NCBI RefSeq assembly: GCF_036365525.1
Contig: NC_090418.1
Location: 7,232,304 to 7,296,303, forward strand
DNA length: 64,000 nt
Direction of reading: 5' to 3'
Source: Heterodontus francisci
Lineage: Eukaryota
Each line of letters starts with the position of its first letter. Within the stretch, counting starts at the first letter, position 1. The position numbers and the translations under genes are program-made. This document shows, piece by piece, positions 2,020 through 63,893 of the stretch. Below the pieces are notes generated by a model, which worked only from the letters and a program-made list of their open reading frames with translations, was not told the origin of the DNA and searched no databases.

Positions 2020-3235
2020 CTGACTGTGCAGCACTCCCTTGGTACTGACCCTGCAACAGTGCAGTGCTCCCTCAGTACTGACCTTCCAACAGTGCGGCAC
2101 TCCCTCAGTACTGACCTTCCAACAGTGCGGCGCTCCCTCAGTACTGACCTTCCAACAGTGCGCACTCCCTCAGTACTGACCTTCGAACAGTGCGGCGCTC
2201 CCTCAGTACTGACCTTCCAACAGTGCGGCGCTCCCTCAGTACTGACCTTCCAACAGTGCGGCGCTCCCTCAGTAATGACCTTCCAACAGTGCAGCGCTCC
2301 CTCAGTACTGACCTTCCAACAGTGCGGCGCTCCCTCAGTACTGACCTTCCAACAGTGCGGCACTCCCTCACTACTGACCTTCCAACAGTGCGGCGCTCCC
2401 TCAGTACTGACCTTCCAACAGTGCGGCACTCCCTCACTACTGACCTTCCAACAGTGCGGCACTCCCTCAGTACTGACCTTCGAACAGTGCGGCACTCCCT
2501 CAGTACTGACCTTCGAACAGTGCGGCACTCCCTCAGTACTGACCTTCCAACAGTGCGGCACTCCCTCAGTACTGACCTTCCAACAGTGCGGCATTCCCTC
2601 AGTACTGACCCTCCGACGGGACAGCTCTTCCTCGGTACTGACCTTCCAACAGTGCGGCACTCCCTCAGTACTGACCTTCCAACAGTGCGGCATTCCCTCA
2701 GTACTGACCCTCCGACGGGACAGCTCTTCCTCGGTACTGACCTTCCAACAGTGCGGCGCTCCCTCAGTACTGACCCTCCAACAGTGCGGCGCTCCCTCAG
2801 TACTGACCTTCCAACAGTGCGGCGCTCCCTCAGTTCTGACCTTCCAACAGTGCGGCGCTCCCTCAGTACTGACCTTCCAACAGTGCGGTGCTCCCTCAGT
2901 ACTGACCTTCGAACAGTGCGGCACTCCCTCAGTCCTGACCTTCCAACAGTGCGGCACTCCCTCAGTACTGACCTTCGAACAGTGCGGCGCTCCCTCAGTA
3001 CTGACCTTCCAACAGTGCGGTGCTCCCTCAGTACTGACCTTCCAACAGTGCGGTGCTCCCTCAGTACTGACCTTCCAACAGTACGGTGCTCCGTCAGTAC
3101 TGACCTTCGAACAGTGCGGCGCTCCCTCAGTACTGACCCTCTGACAGTGCAGCACTCCCTCAGTACTGACCCTCTGACAGTGAGGCGCTCCCTCAGGACT
3201 GACCCTCTGACAGTGCTGCACTCCCTCAGTACTGG
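2020..3235. repeat. 33-bp minisatellite expanded inside a SINE
   Basis: Unit CAGTGCGGCGCTCCCTCAGTACTGACCTTCCAA, about 36 copies; explains the overlapping repetitive ORFs at 1938-3248. Confidence 0.95.
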
Positions 3236-33962: not shown

Positions 33963-34465
33963 CTGGGGAAAGGGAACAGATAAACCCAGTCAGTATTGGA
34001 ATGGTTCCCCTACTCCTAACACTGTATAGCTGTCCCTCCATCTTACATAGCGAGTCATCATTCTATTAATCTACCCACCTCTATATCGTTCATTCTCTCT
34101 ATATCTGTCTCTCTCTTTCTGAGCAACTCTCTGTCTCACTTTACTCACTCTCTAGCTCCGTTAATACCTTAACACTGTTCGTCTGCCTCTCTCTCTCTTG
34201 CTGCCTCTCATAGTGCGTTTCTATCTATTCCTCTTGTTTTTCTCAAGCTGCCTCTCTCAATCCCTCTCTAATTCTCTTTAGCTCCATTTATCAATACTGC
34301 AGTACTTCGGTGAATAACTAATGAATGTCTTGCATCAGGTAATCTCCCCTTGAGAGCTTTGTTTAAAAATCTTTTTGTTGGATACTCGTGTTCGTGAAGG
34401 TGAGGGGTATTAGATCTGGAAAGCTGAACACAGTGGCACTTCAAGAGGTCAGTGACCTTATCAGG

Positions 34466-35711
34466 GGGCAGGTACAGCACGGGGTTAGAGACAGAATAAA
34501 GCTCCCTCTACACTGTCCCCATCAAACACTCCCAGGACAGGTACAGTACGGGGGTAAAAAAACCAAAAAAAAAACGGGGTTAGATACAGAGTAAAGCTCC
34601 CTCTACAAAAAAAAAAACGGGGTTAGATACAGAGTAAAGCTCCCTCTACACTGTCCCCATCAAACACTCCCAGGACAGGTACAGCACAGGTTAGATACAG
34701 AGTAAAGCTCCGTCTACACTGTCCCTATCAAACACTGAATGGAAAACACTTGTGGTAAACAAAGTCTTGTTGTGCAATTGTAGGAAGGAATGGAGTTGGT
34801 GTTAGATAAGTTTGAAACAAAAAAAAAAACGGGGTTAGATACAGAGTAAAGCTCCCACTACACTGTCCCCCATCAAACACTCCCAGGACAGGTACAGCAC
34901 AGGGTTAGATACGGAGTAAAGCTCCCTCTACACTGTCCCGTCAAACACTCCCAGGACAGGTACAGCACAGGTTAGATACAGAGTAAAGCTCCGTCTACAC
35001 TGTCCCTATCAAACACTGAATGGGAAAAACTTGTGGTAAACAAAGTCTTGTTATGCAATTGTAGGAAGGAATGGAGTCGGTGTTAGATAAGTTTGAAACA
35101 AAAAAAAACGGGGTTAGATACAGAGTAAAGCTCCCTCTACACTGTCCCATCAAACACTCCCAGGGCAAGTACAGCACGGGGTTAGATACAGAGTAAAGCT
35201 CCCTCTACACTGTCCCATCAAACACTCCCAGGGCAAGTACAGCACAGGGTTAGATACAGAGTAAAGCTCCCTCTACACTGTCCCATCAAACACTCCCAGG
35301 GCAAGTACAGCACGGGGTTAGATACAGAGTAAAGCTTCCTCTACACTGTCCCCATCAAACACTCACAGGACAGGTACAGCACGGAATTAAAAAAGAAAAA
35401 AAAACACCAAAAAAATTTTTAAAAGAAGAAAAAATGGGGTTAGATACAGAGTAAAGCTCCCTCTACACTGTCCCCATCAAACACTCCCAGGACAGGTACA
35501 GTACGGGGTTAGATACAGAGTAAAGCTCCCTCTACACTGTCCCCATCAAACACTCCCAGGACAGGTACAGCACGGGGTTAGATACAGAGTAAAGCTCCCT
35601 CTACACTGTCCCCATCAAACACTCCCAGGACAGGTACAGCACGGGGTTAGATACAGAGTAAAGCTCCGTCTACGCTGTCCCCATCAAACACTCCCAGGAC
35701 AGGTACAGCAC
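34466..35711. repeat. 69-bp minisatellite, left part, interrupted by five A-tailed inserts
   Basis: Unit CGGGGTTAGATACAGAGTAAAGCTCCCTCTACACTGTCCCCATCAAACACTCCCAGGACAGGTACAGCA, roughly 15 full or partial copies. Confidence 0.95.
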
Positions 35712-36395
35712 TGGGATTGGCTGGTCAATTTGGAGCACTTCCTGCCAGCAATCAGGGGGAGCAGCTGCACCTGTGTTGCAGCAATTGCAGAGTGGAGACT
35801 GGAGTAATTGGAGAAAGTGGAGAGGTGAATGCAGAGTGGAGAGAAACCATCAAGAAAGGCTGCAATTTTTCTGGAAAGGTGGGTGTCAGGGCACCTGAAA
35901 GACTCTGAAGTTTAAACTGTTTGGGGGAGGGAGAAGAGGCCTGAAGACTCAGGGGTGGGGCAGCCAAATCCAGTAGGGGCCCCTGTGTTTGTATTGGTGT
36001 TTGCACACAGGGAGCTCCCTCCCCACCCCAACTGCCTGCTCGGGACAGCTGGAGTTGCCCGGGTGAAGACTGTCTTGTTAAAATCAGAAGAGGAGAGTAC
36101 CGGGCGGCTCCAGCCGTCCCGGGCGAAGAAGCCTCCCCCAACTGGAAGACAACAAACAGTTTTGGACTAATTGTTATAAAGGTGCTCCAACTGGCAGTTG
36201 GATCAAACATCCTTTTCAGCCTTTCTCTCCCTTCCTCCACTCAGTCGCCTCAGTCACCTATCCTCCCCATTTCCTTTACCATCCTACCCCATCCTCCTCT
36301 ACTCCCACTCCACCTTGTTTAAAGTTTGCTTTTTTTTTTAAAAAATTGTGTAAATTTGTTTTGTTTCTTGGGGGTGGACGTAGCTCTTAGACCCC

Positions 36396-38435
36396 ATGGC
36401 AAGCCCCTCTTCGCCGGTGGCGGGGCCTTCCCGGTCATATGCTGCTGCGGCTGCTGCAGCTGCACCTGTTGCCCCGTCACCTTTTGCTTTATTAACAACG
36501 AAGCATGGGGTCAAGAGCTACGTCCACCCGAACATGACTATAGAGGCATGCGTGAAAGCAATGGCCGAGGTTGTCGGCCCCTCGGCCATTGTTGCAGCCT
36601 CTAAAATGTACGGGAAGGCAGTGTTTTTCCTGAAGACCGAGCGGGCGGTGTCCCTGGCTCTGAGCAAGGGGCTCACCGTGGGCGGGACCTTTCTGCCAGT
36701 GGACCCCCTGGAGGCCACTGCGCAAAGGCTCATTTTATCCAATGTCCCGCCCTTCATCCCTGGTGAGCTCCTCCTTCCCCACCTGCACCATCTGGGGGAG
36801 GTAAAGACGGGGCTCACCCCAGTCCCGCTCGGTCTTCGGGAGAACAGCCTCCGACACGTCTACTCCTTCCGCCGCCAGTTATTCATGCAGCTGGCGCGGG
36901 AGGAGGTGACAGAGGGCCACTTCAATGTAGAATTCCAGGGGACGGCCTACCGCGTCTTCTGGACCTTGGACGGGGTGCGGTGCCATGTCTGTAAGGGGGT
37001 GGGGCATGTTCGTAAGAACTGCCCCAACCTCGCGGCTGCCAACTCCAACTCAGCGGCCCAGGGTGGCGACGCTGCACCTCCTCCCACCCCCACTACACCA
37101 CCACCAGATACCATTCAGTCGGTACCGGAGGCTGTGGTTTTCACGGCCTCCGGCAGGGAGGGGGGTGACCGTCCAAGTGGAAGGAAGGCGCGGAGGAGAA
37201 ATAAACATCGAGAGGCGCGTCCCCTGGATATCGTGACACTACCCGAGCCTGAGCTCAGCCCAAGGCCCGATCTCGGGAAGTCAACTTGCCCCAGGGCTGG
37301 GCTCAGGCCCAGGGTGAATAAAAAAAAGGAGAGTGTGGAGGTGGAGGCCTCTGATGATATGGAGGTCTCTGAGCCTCCGCACACAACTGGGAAAAAGAGG
37401 AGAAGGCACCCCTCCACAGAGGTAACAAGGGGCCCTGAGGCGCAGGGCCCATCTGTTGGAGGGGAGCTGTCTCCTGTTTCGGGTCCCCAGGTTTCCCCTA
37501 CCGCCACCACCAAGGCTGCAAAGTCCGGGCAGGTGCTCCCAATTCCTCAGGATGGAGGGAAGGGGATGGCCCCGGTACATGAGGCCCCTACTGAAGGAGT
37601 AAGTGGGGCCCTGCTTGTGGTGGGGGAGCCTGGGGAAGCCGCCCATTCTGCCACTGCTACTGGGTCGGGTGTCCTGAATGAAGGGGAGGGCGAGGCCCCA
37701 GAGGGTCGGGCCTCCCAGCCGGAGTCCACCACCAACCAGGAGACACCCGACCCAGTTATAACTGAGAATGCTGCCCCACCTGCTGGGCCTGTGGGTGCTG
37801 GCGGAGCGGGAGATAGCCTCCTCCCTCCGCCTCCAATCTCGGCTCCGGCTGGTTTCCCGGAGTCGGGAACTTCTGTCTCCCCTGGACCACTCATTGCCCT
37901 GGGGACGGAGGTGGAGGGGGGTCCTGAGCCGCTGGTGCCTACAGGCTCCAGTTTCACAATAGAACCCAGAGAGGACTCCTCCGCCATCGATCCTGGGGGT
38001 GGGATCGTGACGGAGGCGGGACCAGCTGGCGCGGCCGGGACGTCCGCCCCACAGTGTGTGGTGGATGTGTTGGCCGCTGGCGGTGACGACCCGGAGGAGG
38101 ATGGGGATTCGGTGCGGGGCACGGAGGATGATCTTGATTCCATCGCCAGTGAGGTGGTGGAGTCCCTCGTGCCTCCCACCGAATCTCCTCTCATCCCCAC
38201 GGCGGAACTCCGGGATTTCCTCGCGGCTTGCAGGGGTTGCCGCAATAAAGTTCAGCTGGCCCTCGACCGTTGGTCGAATCTGGCGCTGATCATCCAGTCC
38301 GTCCGTGCCGCCCTTAAGATAGCGGGCAAGCGCGCGGACGTGAAACTGGTTGAGAGGCGCCGTTTTAATGTGTTCCTCAATGGGTTGCTGGGGGAGTGGA
38401 GGGCCAGGTGCACTTCCACTCCCTCCTCACAGTGA
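36396..38435 (+). CDS. Tx1 ORF1 protein (RNA-binding, zinc knuckle), 679 aa
   Basis: Tx1-type N-terminus (IVAASKMYGKAVFFL, LILSNVPPFI, HVYSFRRQ), CCHC knuckle CHVCKGVGHVRKNC, long Pro/Gly/Glu-rich linker. Confidence 0.92.
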   Translation: MASPSSPVAGPSRSYAAAAAAAAPVAPSPFALLTTKHGVKSYVHPNMTIEACVKAMAEVVGPSAIVAASKMYGKAVFFLKTERAVSLALSKGLTVGGTFLPVDPLEATAQRLILSNVPPFIPGELLLPHLHHLGEVKTGLTPVPLGLRENSLRHVYSFRRQLFMQLAREEVTEGHFNVEFQGTAYRVFWTLDGVRCHVCKGVGHVRKNCPNLAAANSNSAAQGGDAAPPPTPTTPPPDTIQSVPEAVVFTASGREGGDRPSGRKARRRNKHREARPLDIVTLPEPELSPRPDLGKSTCPRAGLRPRVNKKKESVEVEASDDMEVSEPPHTTGKKRRRHPSTEVTRGPEAQGPSVGGELSPVSGPQVSPTATTKAAKSGQVLPIPQDGGKGMAPVHEAPTEGVSGALLVVGEPGEAAHSATATGSGVLNEGEGEAPEGRASQPESTTNQETPDPVITENAAPPAGPVGAGGAGDSLLPPPPISAPAGFPESGTSVSPGPLIALGTEVEGGPEPLVPTGSSFTIEPREDSSAIDPGGGIVTEAGPAGAAGTSAPQCVVDVLAAGGDDPEEDGDSVRGTEDDLDSIASEVVESLVPPTESPLIPTAELRDFLAACRGCRNKVQLALDRWSNLALIIQSVRAALKIAGKRADVKLVERRRFNVFLNGLLGEWRARCTSTPSSQ

Positions 38436-38467
38436 GCTGTTGGTGACGGGTTTTAAGTACCTTTGAC

Positions 38468-41400
38468 ATGAAGATAACCATAGCCAGCCTCAACATCAAC
38501 GGCAGCAGAGGGGCTCACCGCAGATTTCACAATCTCTCAGTCCTTAGGGAAGGGAGATACGCGGTGAGCTTTCTGCAGGAAACCCACACCGTTCCGGGAG
38601 ACGAAGCCACCTGGCTCCTGGAGTGGCAGGGTGGGGTCTACATGAGTCACCTCACCCCTATTTCTAGTGGGGTGGCTATCTTGTTGGCCCCGACTTTTCA
38701 GCCGGAGATCTTGGGGGTCAAGGAGCTAGTGCCGGGCCGCTTGCTCCACCTCGCCGTTCGCCTGGGTAGCGTGCCGCTCCACTTTGTGAATGTGTACGCG
38801 CCCAGGCCCGGCGCTTTGCAAGCGCGCTTCTTTGAAGAAGTGTCCGCTCTCTTGAGCTCCATCGATAGCGGCGAGTGCATCATCCTCGGGGGGGATTTTA
38901 ACTGCACCCTGGAGGTGGGGGATCGCTCCGGTCCCCAGCGCGGCCAAGCGTCGGTGGAGAAGTTGAGGGGACTGATCAGCTCCCTTAACTTGGTGGACGT
39001 CTGGCGGAATCTCCATCCCGACTCCAGCGCCTTCACGTGGAGGTCTGGAGGAGGGGGGTCGCGAATCGACCGCCTCTACATTTCGCAGGCGTACGTCTCC
39101 CGCGTTTCGGCGGCCTCCATGCGGCTGGTGCCGTGCTCGGACCACCGCCTGGTGTGGGCGGAGTTCACTCCGCTCCGCACGCGGGCGGGGTCCGCGTACT
39201 GGCACTTTAACAACCGGCTGCTGGAGGACGTGCGATTTCGGGACTCGTTCTGTCGATTCTGGGCCGACTGGAGAAGGAAGCAGGGGGGCTTCCCCTCCTT
39301 GAGGCTATGGTGGGATGTGGGCAAGACTCACATCCGCGTCTTCTGTCAGGAGTACGCGAAGGGGTCGACCAAAAGGCGGGAAGCCGAGATCGGGCGCCTT
39401 GAGAGGGAGGTGCTCGACTTGGAATCCCGCCTCGGTCATGCCGTCGCGGACCCGGCCCTGTGGCAGGCGTACAAAGAGAAGAAGGGCGCGCTGAGGAACC
39501 TGCAGCTCATAGGGTCCCGAGGCGCGTACGTGAGGTCGCGGATTCAGATCCTGCAAGATTTGGACCGCGCCTCACCCTTCTTCTACTCGCTGGAAAAATG
39601 GCGGGGGGTCCGTAAGCAGCTCGTCGAGCTGCTGGCCGACGACGGATCCTCCATCACGGATCCGGAGGGAATGGGCCTCCTGGTCCGGACGTATTACAGT
39701 GCGTTGTTCTCTCCGGATCCGTCCAGCGAGGATGCGCGCAGAGTTTTGTGGGAGGACCTGCCGCAGGTCAGCCCGGAGGGCGCCGAAGGATTGGAGGCTC
39801 CGCTCACGTTGGCGGAGCTGACTGGCGCCCTCCACCAGCTCTCGAGGGGCAAATCCCCAGGGCTGGATGGGTTGACCGTGGAGTTCCTCAGGGCGTTCTG
39901 GGACGTCCTGGGGGACGATTACGCGCGGGTCCTGGGGGAAAGCCTGGCGACCGGGGAGATGCCCCTCTCGTGGCGCAGGGCGGTCATCGTCCTGCTGCCG
40001 AAGAGGGGCGATCTTCGCCTGCTTAAAAACTGGCGTCCGGTCTCCCTCCTCAGCACGGATTATAAGATCTTTGCCCGGGCTATGTCTACCCGCCTGGGCT
40101 CCGTGCTGGCCCACATGATCCACCCCGACCAGTCCTACACGGTCCCGGGCCGGTCCATCCAGGACAACATCCACCTGGTCCGGGACCTGATCCATCTTTC
40201 CCAGAGGACTGGTCAGTCGGTCGCCTTTCTCTCCCTCGATCAGGAGAAGGCGTTCGACAGGGTGGATCACGATTACCTTTTCGGGACTCTGCGCGCTTTC
40301 GGACTCGGGCCGCATTTCGTGGCCCGGGTCCGACTTTTATACGCCGCCGCAGAGTGTCTAGTCAAAGTTAACGGGTCCTTGACGGCGCCCCTTCGATTTG
40401 GGAGAGGAGTGCGTCAGGGGTGCCCCATGTCCGGCCAATTGTATACCATCTGCGTGGAGCCCTTCCTGTGCCTGCTTCGCAGGAGCTTGACGGGATTGGC
40501 TCTGCGCGAGCCGGCCATGCGGGTCGTCCTCTCGGCTTACGCCGACGACGTGCTCCTCGCAATCACAGATCCCGTTGACTTGCGGAGGATGCGCGACTGC
40601 CAGCAGACCTTTTCTGCCGCGTCCTCCGCGAGGATCAATTGGGAGAAATGTTCCGGACTCCTGGTTGGTCAGTGGCGGGTGGACTCCCTGCCGGAGGAGA
40701 TGACACCTTTTGCGTGGAGCACCACGCACCTCCTCTATCTGGGAGTCCACCTTAGCCCCGCTGAGGAAGCCTGGCCGGCAAACTGGCAGGAGTTGGAGGC
40801 GAAAGTCACCGCTCGGCTGGGGCGCTGGACAGGACTGCTCCGAGTGCTTTCCTACAGGGGCCGAGCGTTGGTCATAAACCAACTGGTGGCCTCCATGCTG
40901 TGGTACCGGTTGGTCACTTTGGCCCCGCCCCCTGTATTTGCCACCAAGATCCAGAAGAAACTCGTCGATTTCTTCTGGGGCAAGAGGAAACACTGGGTCT
41001 CTGCCGCGGTCCTGAGTCTCCCGATCGAGGAGGGCGGTCAGTCGCTGGTGTGCGTCCGCACCCAGGCTGCGACTCTCCGCCTTCGGACCCTGCAGAGATA
41101 CCTGTACGTCGAGCGTCCTCCCAGATGGTGTGCGCTGGCGACGTATTTTTTCCGCCAGTGTCACTGCCTTCAAGACGACACGCAGCTCCCGGTGGAGTCC
41201 GTTAGCCGCGCCTCTCTGAGGGAGTTGCCTGTCTTTTACCGGGATCTTTTCCGAGTCTGGAACATGGTCGCCTCCAGTCAGGGCGCTCCCCCGCCGGCGG
41301 AGGAGAGCGCCTCGGCTGTCCGGGCGGCCGACTCCGGGGACGGTCCGGCGGGCGGAGGAGTAGCCGAAACCCCCGGGACGCCCCTCACTGCGGGTGGCGA

Positions 41401-42205
41401 GGGGGCTCGGGAGTGCGGAGCGATCCCGGCCGAGCTGACCCCCGCTCGGCCGGAACTGCTCATCGGACCCAGGCCCCGAAACCCTCCTCGGGAGCCGGTC
41501 CCGCACAACCCGAGCCGCCTCTCGGAAATGCCCTCCGTGCCATTCCAATCGGCGCGGAGGGGTTTCCTGTACGGGCTGCTCCTGCACACTCTCCACTTCC
41601 TCGCCCTCGTCAGCCGGCCGGACACGCCCTGGCGGTCCGCGTTGCCATCTGGCGGCGAGGGGAAACCCCGATGGAGGTCTCTCTACGCGGGAGTCTTCCC
41701 CCTTTACATCGGGGACCTGGGGTGGAGGGTGCTGCACAGAGCAGTCCCGTGCAATAGGCTTTTAAGTAGGTTCACGGACTCCCAGGCCACCTGTACTTTC
41801 TGCGGCCTGGACGAGTCCGTGTTCCACATTTATACGGAGTGTGCGAGGTTGCAGCCCCTATTTGAGTATCTGAAGGGGCTGCTCCTCAAATTCTGGCTGC
41901 GCTTCAGTCCCACGCTCCTGATCTTTGGGCACCCGGTGCGGAGGGGCTCGGGCCGGGAGGAGGATCTCCTCGTCGGTCTGCTCCTGGGCCTGGCCAAGGT
42001 GGCAATTCACAGGTCCAGGTTGCGGGCCGTCGGGGGGTCCGTCCTCCCCGATTGCCTGCCCCTCTTCCGCGGTTACGTTCGCGCCCGGGTGTCCCTGGAA
42101 AAGGAGCATGCGGTGTCCGCCGGTACGCTTGAGGCCTTCCGCGACCGGTGGGCACCGCAGGGACTGGAGTGCATCGTCGACGCCGAGAATGGCATTTTAA
42201 TTTGA
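38468..42205 (+). CDS. Tx1 ORF2 protein: APE endonuclease, reverse transcriptase and C-terminal zinc finger, 1245 aa
   Basis: EN motifs SLNING, LQETH, GGDFN, SRIDR, SDH; RT motifs KSPGLDG, NWRPVSLL, LDQEKAFDRV, GVRQGCPMS, YADD, YLG; C-terminal CTFCGLDESVFHIYTEC; no stops or frameshifts. Confidence 0.96.
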   Translation: MKITIASLNINGSRGAHRRFHNLSVLREGRYAVSFLQETHTVPGDEATWLLEWQGGVYMSHLTPISSGVAILLAPTFQPEILGVKELVPGRLLHLAVRLGSVPLHFVNVYAPRPGALQARFFEEVSALLSSIDSGECIILGGDFNCTLEVGDRSGPQRGQASVEKLRGLISSLNLVDVWRNLHPDSSAFTWRSGGGGSRIDRLYISQAYVSRVSAASMRLVPCSDHRLVWAEFTPLRTRAGSAYWHFNNRLLEDVRFRDSFCRFWADWRRKQGGFPSLRLWWDVGKTHIRVFCQEYAKGSTKRREAEIGRLEREVLDLESRLGHAVADPALWQAYKEKKGALRNLQLIGSRGAYVRSRIQILQDLDRASPFFYSLEKWRGVRKQLVELLADDGSSITDPEGMGLLVRTYYSALFSPDPSSEDARRVLWEDLPQVSPEGAEGLEAPLTLAELTGALHQLSRGKSPGLDGLTVEFLRAFWDVLGDDYARVLGESLATGEMPLSWRRAVIVLLPKRGDLRLLKNWRPVSLLSTDYKIFARAMSTRLGSVLAHMIHPDQSYTVPGRSIQDNIHLVRDLIHLSQRTGQSVAFLSLDQEKAFDRVDHDYLFGTLRAFGLGPHFVARVRLLYAAAECLVKVNGSLTAPLRFGRGVRQGCPMSGQLYTICVEPFLCLLRRSLTGLALREPAMRVVLSAYADDVLLAITDPVDLRRMRDCQQTFSAASSARINWEKCSGLLVGQWRVDSLPEEMTPFAWSTTHLLYLGVHLSPAEEAWPANWQELEAKVTARLGRWTGLLRVLSYRGRALVINQLVASMLWYRLVTLAPPPVFATKIQKKLVDFFWGKRKHWVSAAVLSLPIEEGGQSLVCVRTQAATLRLRTLQRYLYVERPPRWCALATYFFRQCHCLQDDTQLPVESVSRASLRELPVFYRDLFRVWNMVASSQGAPPPAEESASAVRAADSGDGPAGGGVAETPGTPLTAGGEGARECGAIPAELTPARPELLIGPRPRNPPREPVPHNPSRLSEMPSVPFQSARRGFLYGLLLHTLHFLALVSRPDTPWRSALPSGGEGKPRWRSLYAGVFPLYIGDLGWRVLHRAVPCNRLLSRFTDSQATCTFCGLDESVFHIYTECARLQPLFEYLKGLLLKFWLRFSPTLLIFGHPVRRGSGREEDLLVGLLLGLAKVAIHRSRLRAVGGSVLPDCLPLFRGYVRARVSLEKEHAVSAGTLEAFRDRWAPQGLECIVDAENGILI

Positions 42206-42357
42206 GTTTTTTTGTTTATTTATCTGTTTTAATAAAGTTATTTTAAAACTGTAAATATGTACATAAAGGGGGCCTGAGGGATAAAGGCCCCCTCGACGTG
42301 AAAAATATAAAAGGGGCCTGGGGTATAAAGGTCACCTTGTAAAAAAAAAAAAAAAAA

Positions 42358-42851
42358 CGGGGGTTAGCTACAGAGTAAAGCTCCCTCTACACTAAAAAAA
42401 AAACAAAAAAAAAAAAAAAAAAAAAAAAAAAACGGGGTTAGATACAGAGTAAAGCTCCCTCTACACTGTCCCCATCAAACACTCCCAGGACAGGTACAGC
42501 ACGGGGTTAGATACAGAGTAAAGCTCCGTCTACGCTGTCCCCATCAAACACTCCCAGGACAGGTACAGCACGGGGTTAGATACAGAGTAAAGCTCCGTCT
42601 ACGCTGTCCCCATCAAACACTCCCAGGACAGGTACAGCACGGGGTTAGATACAGAGTAAAGCTCCCTCTACACTGTCCCCCATCAAAAAAAAAACGGGGG
42701 TTAGATACAGAGTAAAGCTCCGTCTACACTGTCCCCATCAAACACTCCCAGGACAGGTACAGCACGGGGTTAGATACAGAGTAAAGCTCCCTCTACACTG
42801 TCCCCCATCAAAAAAAAAACAGGGGTTAGATACAGAGTAAAACTCCCTCTA
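42358..42851. repeat. 69-bp minisatellite, right part, interrupted by three poly(A) tracts
   Basis: Same unit resumes at CGGGGGTTAG immediately after the Tx1 poly(A) tail. Confidence 0.95.
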
Positions 42852-44654: not shown

Positions 44655-45645
44655 GGATGTGGAAAGAGAGCAGGGCAGTGGGATTAGTTTGGGATTGTTA
44701 CAGGGCTATGGGGAGAGAGTGGGACAGTGGGACTAGTATGGGATTGATACAGGGCTATGGGGAGAGTGCGGGGCAGTTGGATTAGTTTGGGATTGATACA
44801 GGGCTATGGGGAGAGAGCAGAGCAGTGGGATTAGTTTGAGATTGATACAGGGCCATGGGGAGAGAGAGCAGGGCAGTGGGATTTGTTTGGGATTGATACA
44901 GGACTATGGGGATAGTGCGGGGCAGTGGGATTAGCTTGGGATTGATACAGGGCTATGGGGTGAGAGCGGGGCAGAGGGATTAGTTTGGGATTGATACAGG
45001 GCTATGGGGAGAGAGCGGGGCAGTGGGATTAGCTTGGGATTGATACAGGGCTATGGGGTGAGAGCGGGGCAGAGGGATTAGTTTGGGATTGATACAGGGC
45101 TATGGGGAGAGAGTGGGGCAGTGGGATTAGTTTGGGATTGATACAGGGCTATGGGGAGAGAGTGGGGCAGTGGGATTAGTTTGGGATTCATACAGGGCTA
45201 TGGGGAGAGAGTGGGGCAGTGGGATTAGTTTGGGGATTGATACAGGGCTATGGGGAGAGAGCGGGGCAGTGGGATTAGTTTGGGATTGATACAGGGCTAT
45301 GGGGTGAGAGCGGGGCAGAGGGATTAGTTTGGGATTGATACAGGGCTATGGGGAGAGAGTGGGGCAGTGGGATTAGTTTGGGATTGATACAGGGCTATGG
45401 GGAGAGAGTGGGGCAGTGGGATTAGTTTGGGATTCATACAGGGCTATGGGGAGAGAGTGGGGCAGTGGGATAAATTTGGGAATGATACAGGGCTATGGGG
45501 AGAGAGCGGGGCAGAGGGATTAGTTTGGGATTGTTACAGGGCTATGGGGAGAGAGTGGGGCAGTGGGATAAATTTGGGATTGATACAGGGCTATGGGGAG
45601 AGAGCGGGGCAGAGGGATTAGTTTGGGATTGATACAGGGCTGTGG
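44655..45645. repeat. 49-bp G-rich minisatellite, short array
   Basis: Unit GGGCTATGGGGAGAGAGTGGGGCAGTGGGATTAGTTTGGGATTGATACA, about 20 copies. Confidence 0.95.
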
Positions 45646-47074
45646 CTAAGGGGACAGTCGAGTTTGGTGCTGGAAGTTGTACAAAGTGGAAATTCGAGAT
45701 GCAAAGTCTTGCCTTTGAAACATGTTAGAAAAAGGACTCAATAGGTCTTTTTTTTTTAAATAAAGCATCAATGTGTTGCATTAAACACTGTGTCAGAGTG
45801 AGTTGGAGTTTGTCATTGAACTAACCACATATGCACTGGTTCTAATTATTTGATCGACTCAACCACATTTTTGCACTTGAGCTGCTGTCTCACAGATAAA
45901 CAGCTGACACCAGCGGAATGTATCACAAAATATCGCTTATCACTTTCATCAACAGCACTGTGTCAAGAGTAAATCATTTGGGTCACACTGTCTGTCTTTT
46001 GAAAGTTCCTATACAATCTGCTTCCACTGCCCTTTCAGGCAGCACATTCCAGATCACAACAACTTACTGTGGATAAAAAAACTCCTCGCCTCTCCCTTTG
46101 GTGCTTTTGTCAATTAACTTAAATCTGTGTCCTCTGGTTACAGACCCTCCCTCCACAGGAAACATTTCCTCCTTATTCACTCCATCGAGACCCCTCATGA
46201 TTTGGAACACCTCTATTAAATCTCCCCTTAACCTTCTCTGCTCTGAGGAGAACAATCCAGTCTCTCCATGCAATGTAGTATAAGATGACAGGCTTGAATG
46301 CACTGTGATTCTCTCTCTCCCCTTCTCTTTGCAACATCTAGATAAGTTTGCAATCAGCACTTGCTATTTTTGCACAATTTCGAGAAGGCTTATTGAAAAC
46401 GAGTTTAAGAAGTGAAGACCACAAGGGGATATCTTAAGTCTCTGCGGACAACACAGTTAAAACACCGTGACACTACAAATAGTTTCATTTCTAAAAATCT
46501 GTTAAAGAGAAAAGGCAAATGTTTTGCACAAAACCTGTGTTCATTCTGAGCTATTAAAGTAATATGCGTCAAACTGGCACCTAGGAGGCTTGTGGCTGAA
46601 ATTTAAGCAACATCGACAGGAGCACAAGTGGGCAATAAGGGATCAGCTGCTCATTACACCCCCTGCCCAATATGCCCCTTGCCTGTTATATCCCTCTCCT
46701 CTTATACCCCCCTGCTCATTACACCCTCTGACCATCATACCCCTTGTCTATTATGCAGTGCAGTAACTATATTTCACAAAATACTTCAATGATTGCGAAT
46801 TGCACTGTATAAATGCAATTCTTCTGGTTTTGTTTTCTCATTGCAGAACTGTGAGTGTCAGCCTGGATTTTTGTGTGCTCAAGCCTCTGGTGTGGGTTTC
46901 GAACCCACAGCCTCCAGAATCGCAGGCAAGAATGTTACACATTGGTGAGAGCAAAACTCATTGGAGATCGGGGTGGGGATGGAGGTTCTCTGAATAGCGT
47001 TCAAGGAGGTTAACTGGGTTCAAATGTTCCACTTTGCCAAGCAGTACAAAATGGCATTCAGGGTTATCGTCGAG

Positions 47075-51379: not shown

Positions 51380-52475
51380 CAGTGGAACTGTACACCAGTG
51401 AGGGTCAGTGCGTGTGGAACTGTACCCCAGTGAGAGTCAGTGTGTGTGTGGAACTGTACCCCAGTGAGAGTCAGTGCGTGTGGAACTGTACACCAGTGAG
51501 AGTCAGTGCGTGTGGAACTGTACCCCAGTGAGAGTCAGTGCGTGTGGAACTGTACCCCAGTGAGAGTCAGTGTGTGTGTGGAACTGTACCCCAGTGAGAG
51601 TCAGTGTGTGTGGAACTGTACCCCAGTGAGAGTCAGTGTGTGTGTGGAACTGTACCCCAGTGAGAGTCAGTGCGTGTGGAACTGTACCCCAGTGAGAGTC
51701 AGTGTGTGTGTGGAACTGTACCCCAGTGAGAGTCAGTGTGTGTGGAACTGTACCCCAGTGAGAGTCAGTGTGTGTGTGGAACTGTACCCCAGTGAGAGTC
51801 AGTGTGTGTGGAACTGTACCCCAGTGAGAGTCAGTGTGTGTGTGGAACTGTACCCCAGTGAGAGTCAGTGTGTGTGGAACTGTACCCCAGTGAGAGTCAG
51901 TGTGTGTGTGGAACTGCACCCCAGTGAGAGTCAGTGTGTGTGGTACTGTAACCCCAGTGAGAGTCAGTGTGTGTGGAACTGTACCCCAGTGAGAGTCAGT
52001 GCGTGTGGAACTGTACCCCAATGAGAGTCAGTGTGTGTGGAAATGTACCCCAGTGAGAGTCAGTGTGTGTGTGGAACTGTACCCCAGTGAGAGTCAGTGT
52101 GTGTGGAACTGTACCCCAGTGAGAGTCAGTGTGTGTGTGGAACTGTACCCCAGTGAGAGTCAGTGTGTGTGTGGAACTGTACCCCAGTGAGAGTCAGTGT
52201 GTGTGGAACTGTACCCCAGTGAGAGTCAGTGTGTGTGGAACTGTACCCCAGTGAGAGTCAGTGCGTGTGGAACTGTACCCCAGTGAGAGTCAGTGTGTGT
52301 GGAACTGTACCCCAGTGAGAGTCAGTGCGTGTGGAACTGTACCCCAGTGAGAGTCAGTGCCTGTGGAACTGTACCCCAGTAAGAGTCAGTGCGTGTGGAA
52401 CTGTACCCCAGTGAGAGTCAGTGCGTGTGGAACTGTACCCCAGTGAGAGTTAGTGCGTGTGGAAATGTACCCCAG
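51380..52475. repeat. 32/34-bp minisatellite
   Basis: Unit GTGGAACTGTACCCCAGTGAGAGTCAGTG(C/T)GT with a variable (GT)n spacer. Confidence 0.95.
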
Positions 52476-52854
52476 TTGTTTTGCACCCATGTATATCCAG
52501 CTTCACTCTCAGACTCATATCTCCCTGCCTTCTGACGCACAGGGGTATAAAGGAGCATGGAAGTACGCAGATGTATGGAGTTAGGTTAAAGATCAGCAAT
52601 GATCTGACTGAGTGGCGTAACGGGCTCGAAGGGCTGAATGGCCTACTCCTGTCCCAATGCTGATTCATCTGCCTCTTTGAGAGATGTGGGTCATCCAGGA
52701 CTATATCTGTTTTAATTCCACACACCACATCCTGTTGATTTGATGTGGTGCACAGTACAATGCACATGACATCAGCTCAATCCATGAGCTGAACCATTTG
52801 CTCACTGTTACTGAAACTCATCAGGAGGAAGTCTGAATTAAAAAGAAAACAAAC

Positions 52855-56974: not shown

Positions 56975-59900
56975 AGATTGATACAGGGCTATGGGGAGAG
57001 AGTGGGGCAGTAGGATTGGTGGGATTGTTGCAGAGCTATTGGGAAGAGCACAGGGCAGTGGGATTACTTTGGGATTGATACTGGGCTATGGGGAGAGAGC
57101 AGGGCAGTGGGATTAGTTTGGGATTGATACAGGGCTATGGGGAGAGAGCAGGGCAGTGGGATTAGTTTGGGATTGATACAGGGCTATGGGGAGAGAGCGG
57201 GGAAGTGGGATTACTTTGGGATTGATACAGGGGTATGGGGAAAGAGTGGAGCAGTGGGATTACTTTGGGATTGATACAGGGCTATGGGGAGAGAGTGGGG
57301 CAGTGGGATTAGTTTGGGATTGTTACAGGGCTATGGGGAGAGAGTGGGGGAGTGGGATTAGTTTGGGATTGATACAGGGCTATGGGGAGAGAGCGGAGCA
57401 GTGGGATTAGTTTGGGATTGTTACAGGGCTATGGGGAGAGAGTGTGGGAGTGGGATTAGTTTGGGATTGATACAGTGCTATGGGGAGAGAGTGTGGGAGT
57501 GGGATTAGTTTGGGATTGATACAGGGCTATGGGGAGAGAATGTGGGAGTGGGATTAGTTTGGGATTGATACAGGGCTATGGGGAGAGAGTGGAGCAGTGG
57601 GATTAGTTTGGGATTGATACAGGGCTATGGGGAGAGAGTGGGGCAATGGGATTAGTTTGGGATTGATACAGGGCTATAGGGAGAGAGTGGAGCAGTGGGA
57701 TTAGTTTGGGATTGATACAGGGCTATGGGGAGAGAGTGGAGCAGTGGGATTAGTTTGGGATTGATACAGGGCTATGGGGAGAGAGTGGAGCAGTGGGATT
57801 AGTTTGGGATTGTTACAGAGCTATAGGGAGAGAGTGGAGCAGTGGGATTAGTTTGGGATTGATACAGGGCTATGGGGAGAGAGTGGAGCAGTGGGATTAG
57901 TTTGGGATTGATACAGGGCTATGGGGAGAGAGTGGGGCAATGGGATTAGTTTGGGATTGATACAGGGCTATAGGGAGAGAGTGGGGCAGTGGGATTAGTT
58001 TGGGATTGATACAGGGCTATGGGGAGAGAGTGGAGCAGTGGGATTAGTTTGGGATTGTTACAGGGCTATAGGGAGAGAGTGGAGCAGTGGGATTAGTTTG
58101 GGATTGTTACAGGGCTATAGGGAGAGAGTGGAGCAGTGGGATTAGTTTGGGATTGTTACAGGGCTATAGGGAGAGAGTGGAGCAGTGGGATTAGTTTGGG
58201 ATTGATACAGGGCTATAGGGAGAGAGTGGAGCAGTGGGATTAGGTTGGGATTGTTACAGGGCTATAGGGAGAGAGTGTGGGAGTGGGATTAGTTTGGGAT
58301 TGTTACAGGGCTATGGGGAGAGAGTGGAGCAGTGGGATTAGTTTGGGATTGATACAGGGCTATGGGGAGAGAGTGGGGCAATGGGATTAGTTTGGGATTG
58401 ATACAGGGCTATAGGGAGAGAGTGGAGCAGTGGGATTAGTTTGGGATTGATACAGGGCTATGGAGAGAGAGTGGAGCAGTGGGATTAGTTTGGGATTGTT
58501 ACAGAGCTATAGGGAGAGAGTGGAGCAGTGGGATTAGTTTGGGATTGTTACAGAGCTATAGGGAAAGAGTGGAGCAGTGGGATTAGTTTGGGATTGTTAC
58601 AGAGCTATAGGGAAAGAGTGGAGCAGTGGGATTAGTTTGGGATTGATACAGGGCTATAGGGAGAGAGTGGAGCAGTGGGATTAGTTTGGGATTGTTACAG
58701 GGCTATGGGGAGAGAGTGGAGCAGTGGGATTAGTTTGGGATTGTTACAGGGCTATAGGGAGAGAGTGGAGCAGTGGGATTAGTTTGGGATTGTTACAGAG
58801 CTATAGGGAAAGAGTGGAGCAGTGGGATTAGTTTGGGATTGATACAGGGCTATAGGGAGAGAGTGGAGCAGTGGGATTAGTTTGGGATTGTTACAGGGCT
58901 ATGGGGAGAGAGTGGAGCAGTGGGATTAGTTTGGGATTGTTACAGGGCTATAGGGAGAGAGTGGAGCAGTGGGATTAGTTTGGGATTGTTACAGGGCTAT
59001 GGGGAGAGAGTGGGGCAGTGGGATTAGTTTGGGATTGATACTGGGTTATGGGGAGAGCGTGGAGCAGTGGGATTAGTTTGGGATTGATACAGGGCTATGG
59101 GGAAAGAGTGGGGTGTGGGATTAGTTTGGGATTGATACAGGGCTATAGGGAGAGAGTGGGGCAGTGGGATTAGTTTGGGATTGATACAGGGCTGTGGGGA
59201 GAGTGCGGGGCAGTGGGATTAGTTTGGGATTGATACTGGGTTATGGGGAGAGCGTGGAGCAGTGGAATTAGTTTGGGATTGATACAGGGCTATGGGGAGA
59301 GAGTGGGGCAATGGGATTAGTTTGGGATTGATACAGGGCTATGGGGAGAGAGTGGAGCAGTGGGATTAGTTTGGGATTGATACAGGGCTATGGGGAGAGA
59401 GTGGGGCAGTGGGATTAGTTTGGGATTGATACAGGGCTATGGGGAGAGAGTGGAGCAGTGGGATTAGTTTGGGATTGATACAGGGCTATGGGGAGAGAGT
59501 GGGGCAATGGGATTAGTTTGGGATTGATACTGGGTTATGGGGAGAGAGTGGGGCAGTGGGATTAGTTTGGGATTGATACAGGGCTATGGGGAGAGAGTGG
59601 GGCAGTGGGATTAGTTTGGGATTGATACAGGGCTATGGGGAGAGAGTGGAGCAGTGGGATTAGTTTGGGATTGATACAGGGCTATGGGGAGAGAGTGGGG
59701 CAATGGGATTAGTTTGGGATTGATACTGGGTTATGGGGAGAGCGTGGAGCAGTGGGATTAGTTTGGGATTGATACAGGGCTATGGGGAGAGAGTGGGGGA
59801 GTGGGATTAGTTTGGGATTGATGCAGGGCTATGGGGAGAGAGTGGGGTGTGGGATTTGTTTTGGTTTGTTCCAGGGTTATGGGGAGAGAGTGGAGCAGTG

Positions 59901-62900
59901 GGATTAGTTTGGGATTGATACAGGGCTATGAGGAGAGAGCAAGGCAGAGGGATTAGTTTGGGATTGATACAGGGCTATGGGGAGAGAGCAGGGCAGTGGG
60001 ATTAGTTTGGGATTGATACAGGGCTGTGGGGAGAGAGTGGGGCAGTGGGATTTGTTTTCGATTGTTACAGGGCTATGGGGAGAGAGTGGGGGAGTGGGAT
60101 TAGTTTGGGATTGATACAGGGCTATGGGGGAGAGAGTGGGGCAGTGGGATTTGTTTTCGATTGTTACAGGGCTATGGGGAGAGAGTGGGGGAGTGGGATT
60201 AGTTTGGGATTGATACAGGGCTATGGGGAGAGAGTGGAGCAGTGGGATTTGTTTGGGATTGATAGTGGGGAGAGAGCAGGGCAGTGGGATTAGTGTGGGA
60301 TTGATACAGGGCTATGGGGAGAGAGCAGGGCAGTGGGATTAGTGTGGGATTGATACAGGGCTATGGGGAGAGAGCAGGGCAGTGGGATTTGTTTGGGATT
60401 GATACAGGGCTATGGGGAGAGAGTGGGGGAGTGGGATTAGTTTGGGATTGATACTGGGTTATGGGGAGAGCGTGGAGCAGTGGGATTAGTTTGGGATTGA
60501 TACAGGGCTATGGGGAAAGAGTGGGGTGTGGGATTAGTTTGGGATTGCTACTGGGTTATGGACAGAGAGTGGGGTGTGGGATTAGTTTGGGATTGATACT
60601 GGATTATGGGGAGAGCGTGGAGCAGTGGGATTAGTTTGGGATTGATACAGGGCTATGGGGAGAGAGTGGGGTGTGGGATTAGTTTGGGATTGATGCAGGA
60701 CTATGGGGAGAGAGTGGGGCAGTGGGATTAGTTTGGGCTTGATACAGGGCTATGGGGAGAGCGCGCGGCAGTGGGATTAGTTTGGGATTGATACAGGGCT
60801 ATGGGGAGAGAGTGGGGTGTGGGATTAGTTTGGGATTGATACTGGATTATGGGGAGAGCGTGGAGCAGTGGGATTAGTTTGGGCTTGATACAGGGCTATG
60901 GGGAGAGCGCGCGGCAGTGGGATTAGTTTGGGATTGATACAGGGCTATGGGGAGAGAGTGGGGTGTGGGATTAGTTTGGGATTGATGCAGGACTATGGGG
61001 AGAGAGTGGGGTGTGTAATTAGTTTGGGCTTGATACAGGACTATGGGGAGAGAGTGGGGCAGTGGGATTAGTTTGGGATTGATACAGGACTATAGGGAGA
61101 GAGCAGGGCAGTGGGATTAGTTTGGGATTGATGCAGGGCTGTGGGGAGAGAGTGGAGCAGTGGGATTAGTTTGGAATTGATACAGGGCTATAGGGAGAGA
61201 GCAGGGCAGTGGGATTTGTTTGGGATTGATACAGGGCTATGGGGAGAGAGTGGGGGAGTGGGATTAGTTTTCGATTGTTACAGGGCTATGGGGAGAGAGT
61301 GGGGGAATGGGATTAGTTTGGGATTGATACAGGGCTATGGGGAGAGAGTGGGGGAGTGGGATTAGTTTGGGATTGATACAGGGCTTTGGGGAGAGAGTGG
61401 GGCAGTGGGATTTGTTTGGGATTGATACAGGGCTATGGGGAGAGAGTGGGGGAGTGGGATTAGTTTGGGATTGATACAGGGCTTTGGGGAGAGAGTGGGG
61501 CAGTGGGATTTGTTTGGGATTGATACAGGGCTGTGGGGAGAGAGCGGGGCAGTGGGATTAGTTTGGGATTGATAGTGGGGAGAGAGTGGAGCAGTGGGAT
61601 TAGTTTGGGATTGATACAGGACTATGGGGAGAGAGCGGGGGAATGGGATTAGTTTGGGATTGATACAGGGCTATGGGGAGAGAGTGGGGGAGTGGGATTA
61701 GTTTGGGATTGCTACAGGGCTATGGGGGAGAGAGTGGGGGAGTGGGATTAGTTTGGGATTGCTACAGGGCTATGGGGGAGAGAGTGGGGGAGTGGGATTA
61801 GTTTGGGGATTGATACAGGGCTGTGGGGAGAGAGTGGGGCAATGGAATTAGTTTGGGATTGATACAGGGCTATGGGGAGAGAGCGGGGGAATGGGATTAG
61901 TTTGGGATTGATGCAGGGCTATGGGGAGAGAGCGGGGGAATGGGATTAGTTTGGGATTGATACAGGGCTATGGGGAGAGAGCGGGGGAATGGGATTAGTT
62001 TGGGATTGATGCAGGGCTATGGGGAGAGCGCGCGGCAGTGGGATTAGTTTGGGATTGATACAGGGCTATGGGGAGAGAGTGGGGTGTGGGATTAGTTTGG
62101 GATTGATGCAGGACTATGGGGAGAGAGTGGGGTGTGTAATTAGTTTGGGCTTGATACAGGACTATGGGGAGAGCGTGGAGCAGTGGGATTAGTTTGGGCT
62201 TGATACAGGGCTATGGGGAGAGCGCGCGGCAGTGGGATTAGTTTGGGATTGATACAGGGCTATGGGGAGAGAGTGGGGTGTGGGATTAGTTTGGGATTGA
62301 TGCAGGACTATGGGGAGAGAGTGGGGTGTGTAATTAGTTTGGGCTTGATACAGGACTATGGGGAGAGAGTGGGGCAGTGGGATTAGTTTGGGATTGATAC
62401 AGGACTATAGGGAGAGAGCAGGGCAGTGGGATTTGTTTGGGATTGATAGTGGGGAGAGAGCAGGGCAGTGGGATTAGTTTGGGATTGATGCAGGGCTGTG
62501 GGGAGAGAGTGGAGCAGTGGGATTAGTTTGGAATTGATACAGGGCTATAGGGAGAGAGCAGGGCAGTGGGATTTGTTTGGGATTGATACAGGGCTATGGG
62601 GAGAGAGTGGGGGAGTGGGATTAGTTTTCGATTGTTACAGGGCTATGGGGAGAGAGTGGGGGAATGGGATTAGTTTGGGATTGATACAGGGCTATGGGGA
62701 GAGAGTGGGGGAGTGGGATTAGTTTGGGATTGATACAGGGCTTTGGGGAGAGAGTGGGGCAGTGGGATTTGTTTGGGATTGATACAGGGCTATGGGGAGA
62801 GAGTGGGGGAGTGGGATTAGTTTGGGATTGATACAGGGCTTTGGGGAGAGAGTGGGGCAGTGGGATTTGTTTGGGATTGATACAGGGCTGTGGGGAGAGA

Positions 62901-63666
62901 GCGGGGCAGTGGGATTAGTTTGGGATTGATAGTGGGGAGAGAGTGGAGCAGTGGGATTAGTTTGGGATTGATACAGGACTATGGGGAGAGAGCGGGGGAA
63001 TGGGATTAGTTTGGGATTGATACAGGGCTATGGGGAGAGAGTGGGGGAGTGGGATTAGTTTGGGATTGCTACAGGGCTATGGGGGAGAGAGTGGGGGAGT
63101 GGGATTAGTTTGGGATTGCTACAGGGCTATGGGGGAGAGAGTGGGGGAGTGGGATTAGTTTGGGGATTGATACAGGGCTGTGGGGAGAGAGTGGGGCAAT
63201 GGAATTAGTTTGGGATTGATACAGGGCTGTGGGGAGAGAGTGGGGCAATGGAATTAGTTTGGGATTGATACAGGGCTATGGGGAGAGAGCGGGGGAATGG
63301 GATTAGTTTGGGATTGATACAGGGCTATGGGGAGAGAGCGGGGGAATGGGATTAGTTTGGGATTGATGCAGGGCTATGGGGAGAGAGCGGGGGAATGGGA
63401 TTAGTTTGGGATTGATGCAGGGCGGTGGGGAGAGAGCGGGGGAATGGGATTAGTTTGGGATTGATACAGGGCTGTGGGGAGAGTGTGGGGCAATGGAATT
63501 AGTTTGGGATTGATACAGGCCTATGGGGAAAGAGTGGGGGACTGGGATTAGTTTGGGATTGATACAGGACTATGGGGAGAGTGTTGCGCAGTGTGATTAG
63601 TTTGGGATTGATGCAGGCCTGTGGGGACAGAGTGGGGGAGTGGGATTAGTTTAGGATTGATACAGG
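56975..63666. repeat. 49-bp G-rich minisatellite, 6.7-kb array
   Basis: Same unit as 44655-45645, well over 100 copies, with variant blocks. Confidence 0.96.
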
Positions 63667-63893
63667 GCCCCTAACAGCTCTGGTGATTTCCTGTTCTGTT
63701 GAGCATTTGATAACTATTTGGACAGGAGAGTACCGGGATTCTTTGTTTCCTGAGCTATTGACGTTGGGTTTAGTGTGATGTGTGTTGTATCTATCAGCCA
63801 GGCTCCAGCTCATGGCCCTCATTTCCCTCTTCCCTTTACTTTTACGAGGTTCTCTGTCATTTCGTAACCAAAGAAGTGTTTACAAGAACTTAC

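Follow-up and report, generated by a model that had tools for sequence, protein, structure and literature searches.

The 64,000-nt stretch of Heterodontus francisci DNA analyzed here (contig NC_090418.1; hereafter the window, with coordinates numbered from its position 1) contains a 69-bp minisatellite array at 34466-42851 that is interrupted by a 6.6-kb Tx1-like long interspersed element (LINE), and the A-tracts found in this array are likely scars left by the Tx1-like LINE through target-primed reverse transcription (TPRT). All nine tracts of the array, comprising six without an element body, the tail of the LINE and the tails of two inserts of foreign DNA, abut the same unit position on their 3' side, and plus-strand A-runs of at least 7 nt number 12 in the 1,761 bp of array sequence versus 12 in the remaining 62,239 bp of the window. 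The partial repeat units that precede the body-less tracts were taken by the original prediction, made from the letters of the window, for target-site duplications (TSDs) of different lengths. This reading mostly fails, and the partial units probably stem from either 3' transduction of target RNA or truncation of the target, of which we tentatively favor the former.

The array falls into a left part (34466-35711), which is the target of the LINE, and a right part (42433-42851), which terminates in a 32-nt remnant of the unit (42820-42851); the features of the array and of the LINE described here lie on the plus strand. In the left part, a 7-nt partial unit (34549-34555) with A7 CC A10 (34556-34574) forms the first half of a double tail, at 34549-34574, and is followed at 34575-34617 by a 32-nt partial unit with A11 (34607-34617). 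Farther on, at 35382-35434, a 3-nt partial unit precedes a 50-nt mixed A-rich tract (35385-35434), likely an old, decayed tail. Directly behind the A17 tail of the LINE (42341-42357), and making it a double tail, lies a 36-nt partial unit with A10 C A28 (42394-42432) at 42358-42432, and a 45-nt partial unit with A10 is found both at 42640-42694 (tract at 42685-42694) and, as a duplicate scar with only the 32-nt remnant downstream, at 42765-42819 (tract at 42810-42819). The six body-less tracts originally reported thus all exist, with partial units of 7, 32, 3, 36, 45 and 45 nt before them and a restart at the same site after them, but they represent only five independent events, because 42685 and 42810 are carried by a 125-bp block that occurs twice, with 2 differences. 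The independent inserts number seven, five of them A-only. The statement that slippage finds no A-run in the unit to start from is right for the 3' side of the tracts; on their 5' side, tracts 42685 and 42810 open with an AAA that belongs to the unit (phase 45-47, phases being positions in the unit) and tract 34607 with a native A (phase 33). The 3' junction that the tracts have in common with the tail of the intact LINE makes their origin as TPRT products likely. As had also been proposed, each scar leaves an intact target downstream. Solitary poly(A) inserts that result from severe 5' truncation have been described as a class. Units whose opening G-run is longer by one base (34549, 42358, 42695 and 42820) occur only beside A-tracts; the two independent cases of an extra G after a tract are too thin a basis for use.

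A duplication of the target site predicts that the partial unit is identical to the unit downstream of the tract. Five A-only partials were compared in this manner, the 3-nt partial being left out, and identical flanking direct repeats were found for one of the five, the 32-nt partial at 34575 (0 differences in 32). The other four show 1-3 differences, namely 1 in 7 columns at 34549, 2 in 36 at 42358, 3 in 46 at 42640 and, for the 45-nt partial at 42765 against the 32-nt downstream remnant, 2 in 32, while the partials of the two body-bearing inserts show 6 differences in 51 and 4 in 50. This divergence is about equal to that between unrelated units (in 120 pairs of unrelated full units the mean is 2.5 differences per 45 nt, and 9 pairs of adjacent full units have 0-6 per 45 nt), and the mismatch removes a TSD as the origin of most long partials. 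A comparison of partial lengths with the TSD of a bona fide copy also goes against duplication, as the full-length LINE duplicates no more than 2 nt of its target at the 5' junction. Furthermore, the TSD interpretation had overlooked an ambiguity of tandem targets, in which a partial unit of p nt could equally be a TSD of p nt, a deletion of 69-p nt or transduced target RNA, so that the scars may either add array sequence or remove it.

Independent data came from Logan contigs, with 4 of 24 runs compared with the region 34300-34900, and 15 of 92 joints and 24 of 522 loose-end rows listed; the contigs break off within the array. One contig of run X1, which may derive from the source sample of the window, spans the unique flank and the first unit (34300-34518) with 0 differences. 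Among the 15 listed joints, four link the unit to an A-run and the target, at phases 37 (X1), 44, 44-47 and 12 (X7); another, with A4 at phase 65, is ambiguous. One listed loose-end row represents 14 X1 contigs in which the unit ends near phase 32-35 and is followed by A9 and then by mixed A-rich letters. In run X10, from a second species that also has part of the window stretch (share 0.46), a 67-nt contig appears to cover a partial unit, a short tract and the target, as judged from 5 gaps and one A-to-T difference. Since like junctions occur in independent short-read contigs, the class of scars is not an assembly artefact; it is genomic and recurrent at the level of the class, individual window tracts aside. 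Loose ends at 34606 and 34649 (X1, X5 and X10) have in common a non-A sequence after phase 32 that is absent from the window; it may belong to a sister element, as its 5' end, or mark where the repeat naturally ends.

We hypothesize, with somewhat less than even confidence, that the long partial units (32-47 nt) are read-through target RNA that was 3'-transduced, and that the short ones (3-12 nt) are, as originally proposed, short TSDs around true solitary poly(A) inserts. Transcription would pass the weak signal and the encoded tail of the LINE and enter the next unit, where the RNA would be cut and tailed 11-24 nt past the AGTAAA hexamer (35519-35524, phase 16-21, in the reference unit 35504-35572). 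ORF2p would then nick the usual site and copy the new tail, the partial unit, and finally the old tail and the element. Complete copying would yield LINE-A(n)-partial-A(n)-target, as at 42341-42432; a stop within the old tail would yield A(n)-partial-A(n), as at 34556-34617; and annealing of the cDNA to the homologous target end would yield a seamless partial-A(n), as at 42685, the 5' join being made either in the old tail or through homology to the target. The arrangement of the long partials is consistent with such a process. The tract begins 11, 14 and 24 nt past the end of the hexamer at 34607, 42394 and 42685, respectively, so that a poly(A) signal precedes the tract by 10-30 nt in all three independent long A-only partials, which is not so for the 80-nt foreign piece. 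Two of the three end at CA. Two long partials each sit between two tails, one of them right behind the LINE, and the combination of downstream flank and second poly(A) is seen at both 42341-42432 and 34556-34617, a shape that two events could also give. If ends were uniform, their clustering at phases 31-51 would have a chance of 0.04-0.06 for the 3 window events and of 0.05 for 4 of 5 distinct sites, both calculated post hoc. Poly(A) signals have been reported to lie 10-30 nt upstream of the cut, with AGUAAA the third most frequent human hexamer (PMC12421377), and in Xenopus tropicalis the signal is placed at -23 +/- 4.6, with cuts that favor YA (PMC6616101). A flank between two tails is the shape described for partnered 3' transduction (PMC3649969), and 3' transduction has also been reported for the site-specific elements R7Ag and R1Bm (PMC7265360). 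In the first whole unit (at 34480), the canonical AATAAA replaces AGTAAA at 34495-34500.

Several observations weigh against transduction. None of 12 tested hexamers occurs within 45 nt before the tail of the foreign piece, the unit lacks a U- or GU-rich downstream element as inspected by eye, and phases 3, 7 and 12 are not accounted for by the signal. Phase 32 is the top-strand position that most resembles the context of the bottom-strand nick (rank 1 of 69 with all four window sizes), and as the 32-nt partial is identical to the downstream unit, a DNA cut accounts for the 34607 scar equally well. Several of the diagnostic differences between partial and downstream units concern the length of homopolymers and might reflect errors in the reads, and neighboring units differ too; the C/G variant at phase 27 is real, because other units have it as well. 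Three of the four A-run joints are flagged 'between: not known', and the tailed target RNA is predicted from DNA sequence. In addition, the non-A junction at phase 32 is found in two samples and in two species, and the window array itself ends at phase 31, neither of which is explained by transduction or by a second cut in the target.

Such a second cut is the close rival of transduction, and we consider it less likely than not. Here, solitary poly(A) insertion would be accompanied by a second ORF2p cut in the top strand, close to phase 32 and mirroring the nick, followed by truncation. A cut in the downstream unit would give a 33-nt duplication, trimmed to 1-32 nt, whereas a cut in the upstream unit would delete up to 36 nt, with partial fill-in and attachment of the poly(T) cDNA where the unit has A's of its own (phases 32-47), so that long partials would mostly be pre-existing units with lost ends and the array would shrink rather than grow. 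The ranking of phase 32 given above agrees with this proposal, as does its being the most recurrent end, but the likeness does not exceed what shuffled units give (p 0.20-0.48), and for a nick before A the ranks among the 69 positions are 30-50 for phases 35 and 44 and 8-15 for phase 37. Truncation would account for partials that differ from their downstream units and for the start of tracts 42685 and 34607 at native A's; no clear short deletion (phase 48-68 followed by a long A-run) is seen, however, among the window events or the 15 listed joints, and each of the two double tails would require two events. Precedents can be cited on either side, as the endonuclease of R1Bm cleaves related sequences on both strands (PMC1919474) and targets of the Tx1-mobilized SINEU-2 show duplication and truncation (PMC4494074), whereas target deletions are rare for L1 (350 of 8,673 calls; PMC12016303).

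That all partial units are variable-length TSDs around poly(A)-only inserts, each event adding a partial unit, is improbable. It fits the scar at 34607 with its 32 identical positions, and it probably fits the partials of 3 and 7 nt; solitary poly(A) is a described L1 class with 157 events (10.1101/2024.08.27.596794), and very long TSDs exist, such as 126 bp in R9 (PMC6895275). The differences at 42358 and 42640 and at the two body-bearing inserts are nevertheless contrary to it, a 45-nt partial stands over a 32-nt remnant at 42765, and APE LINEs usually give TSDs of 10-20 bp, the full-length copy here giving at most 2 nt. Still less probable is that the scars were longer inserts whose bodies were later deleted by recombination between an upstream native A and the tail: the A microhomology at 42685/42810 and 34607 and the evidence of unequal exchange in the duplicated 125-bp block would suit such deletions, but 42394 is without microhomology, one large deletion would be needed per scar, and the avoidance of phase 19-21 by the ends would go unexplained. 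Assembly error or polymerase slippage has the least to commend it and is very improbable. Homopolymers are error-prone and the support for the tracts comes from contigs rather than from raw reads of the window, yet all nine tracts have one 3' phase, like junctions are present in short-read contigs of a single sample (two runs) and in one contig from a second species, and slippage cannot delete 22-37 nt of a unit and reset its phase.

The two body-bearing inserts bear on the transduction reading from another side. In copy 1 (34687-34829), a 49-nt partial unit carrying 4 variants is followed by non-element DNA of about 80 nt (34736-34814) and an A-rich tail, and copy 2 (34968-35108) has an identical partial unit followed by the foreign piece and tail (35017-35108); the two pieces show 4 differences in 83 positions, and both inserts are carried by a duplicated block of about 280 bp. 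The foreign piece is similar to one 630-nt X1 contig, a candidate donor (5 differences in 84), which continues for 546 nt without an A-run, and this indicates that ends of non-element RNA are tailed and inserted at this site. The insert is like an orphan transduction. A 13-nt match to the foreign piece at 46338 was discarded, as it does not extend and 35% of 307 control windows score equally. The exact versions of the foreign piece found in the window, two in number, have no contig of their own in X1. As contigs drop and merge variants, this was not used as evidence of polymorphism. Together, the duplicated 125-bp and 280-bp blocks show that ordinary unequal exchange also reshapes the array.

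The full-length Tx1-like LINE occupies 35712-42340, and the reading frames of both its open reading frames (ORFs) are open. ORF1 (36396-38435; 679 aa) has one CCHC knuckle by sequence and no Pfam match, and its relatives are found in sturgeon and turtles. ORF2 (38468-42205; 1245 aa) contains an APE endonuclease domain (PF03372 at residues 6-226), a reverse transcriptase domain (PF00078 at 511-762) and a C-terminal CCHC motif. It shares 50% identity over its full length with Xenopus Tx1 ORF2 (650 of 1301 columns, 1343 bits) as against 268 bits with L1 ORF2p, and is thus nearer to Tx1 than to mammalian L1, and a Heterodontus francisci gene model matches it with 93% identity across 28% of ORF2. 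Judged by these features, the element appears to fit the Tx1 clade in the respects tested. A published criterion for target specificity is the presence of the same repeat in more than 20% of flanks (PMC4494074); here, all nine array tails use one site, with only one LINE copy seen whole. The start of the LINE (35711-35720) is loosely like the start of the target unit. The 5' junction of the LINE recurs as a loose end in one contig of a second sample (X5), and may have been inherited from a co-transcribed master copy. An ORF2 search of viral contigs gave no confirmed locus, and no description of a shark Tx1 family at a 69-bp repeat was found in the literature outside Repbase and subscription papers.

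The 3' untranslated region (UTR) of the LINE has two tandem hairpins (42267-42293 and 42311-42338) with an A-rich spacer between them (region z-score -2.65), and a TATAAA at 42324-42329, 11 nt past which the tail starts. Hairpin 1 could be aligned with unit phases 2-32 over 21 of 31 columns (empirical p ~0.014), in register with the site of insertion and with the scar end seen most often; a score as high is reached by 18 of 1,289 windows in the LINE and by 83 of 6,213 in the flank. Hairpin 2 is similar to hairpin 1, and its similarity to the unit is at chance level. These likenesses allow a further proposal, which we regard as unlikely, that the repeat is both target and template, with tailed array RNA rewritten by the Tx1 reverse transcriptase as a self-templating satellite and the two hairpins being old captured copies of the target. 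The first 32 nt of the unit would then carry the poly(A) signal and resemble the 3' hairpin of the LINE. If this were true, the 3' end of the LINE would have grown by capture of target pieces and the repeat would template its own parasite.

The unit itself is unremarkable as an RNA fold (z -0.57), and an Rfam search gave 3 chance-level matches, none close to the gathering score, so that the target does not correspond to a known RNA gene. Scans with the unit pattern found 0 stretches in viral contigs, metagenome contigs and prokaryote genomes. Used as a protein query, the open frame of the unit had one match, a Scyliorhinus torazame gene model with a unit-like peptide; among 11 representatives that this query also gave, two (P0121 and P0126) of the five inspected resemble the unit, and no scar is present in these five. 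Contigs on the unit number 13,075 in organism A versus 24 in organism B (runs X1 and X10), a hint that the species of the window has the unit in much greater abundance or diversity. Run X7, guessed to be an RNA run, covers the unit but not the flank, which is no more than a hint of transcription. Four other minisatellite arrays occur in the window at 2026-3234, 44665-45645, 51382-52476 and 56976-63668, with units of 33, 49, 32/66 and 49 bp, the 49-bp unit thus accounting for two of the four, one of which has 137 copies; none of these arrays contains an A- or T-run of at least 7 nt.

Were the transduction of target RNA true, the LINE would copy pieces of its target into its target, minisatellites would have an RNA route of change that can be traced, and what look like long TSDs in tandem targets could be transductions in disguise. 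Were there instead a second cut near phase 32, the scars would map where an APE-type LINE cleaves the second strand, which has been described as a poorly understood step (PMC6895275). On either reading, a high-copy array with one fixed site would serve as a natural log of abortive integration.

The element resembles Tx1 of Xenopus laevis (Tx1L) and the Tx1 clade (Keno, Kibi, Koshi and Tx1-Mar) in its two ORFs with APE and reverse transcriptase, its poly(A) tail and, apparently, its fixed site in a multicopy target. Unlike in the named Tx1 families, the target here is a 69-bp minisatellite. The legend of a Tx1 tree lists satellites as a target label (PMC4494074). The solitary poly(A) inserts of human L1 are likewise body-less A-tracts at an endonuclease site, but they constitute 2% of somatic events as compared to five of seven independent inserts in this array, where the flanks mostly fail the TSD test. 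Expansion of HSATII via RNA-derived DNA (summarized in PMC12112567) offers a parallel in which repeat RNA is copied back into its own array; it differs from the present case, where a site-specific LINE, a fixed site and A-tract scars are involved, and where most units are scar-free and likely come from unequal exchange. A further precedent, for the favored reading, is the 3' transduction of L1, both partnered and orphan, and of R1Bm and R7Ag, which shares with the array the double tail with a flank, the orphan piece with its own tail and, in the case of the long A-only partials, the signal 10-30 nt before the new tail. Here the flank would be the target repeat itself, and a transduced flank would thus be disguised as a TSD and could be joined seamlessly. 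Solitary poly(A) inserts and transduction are therefore both known; what is unusual is their density in the element's own target array, and that the flank that would be transduced is the target itself.

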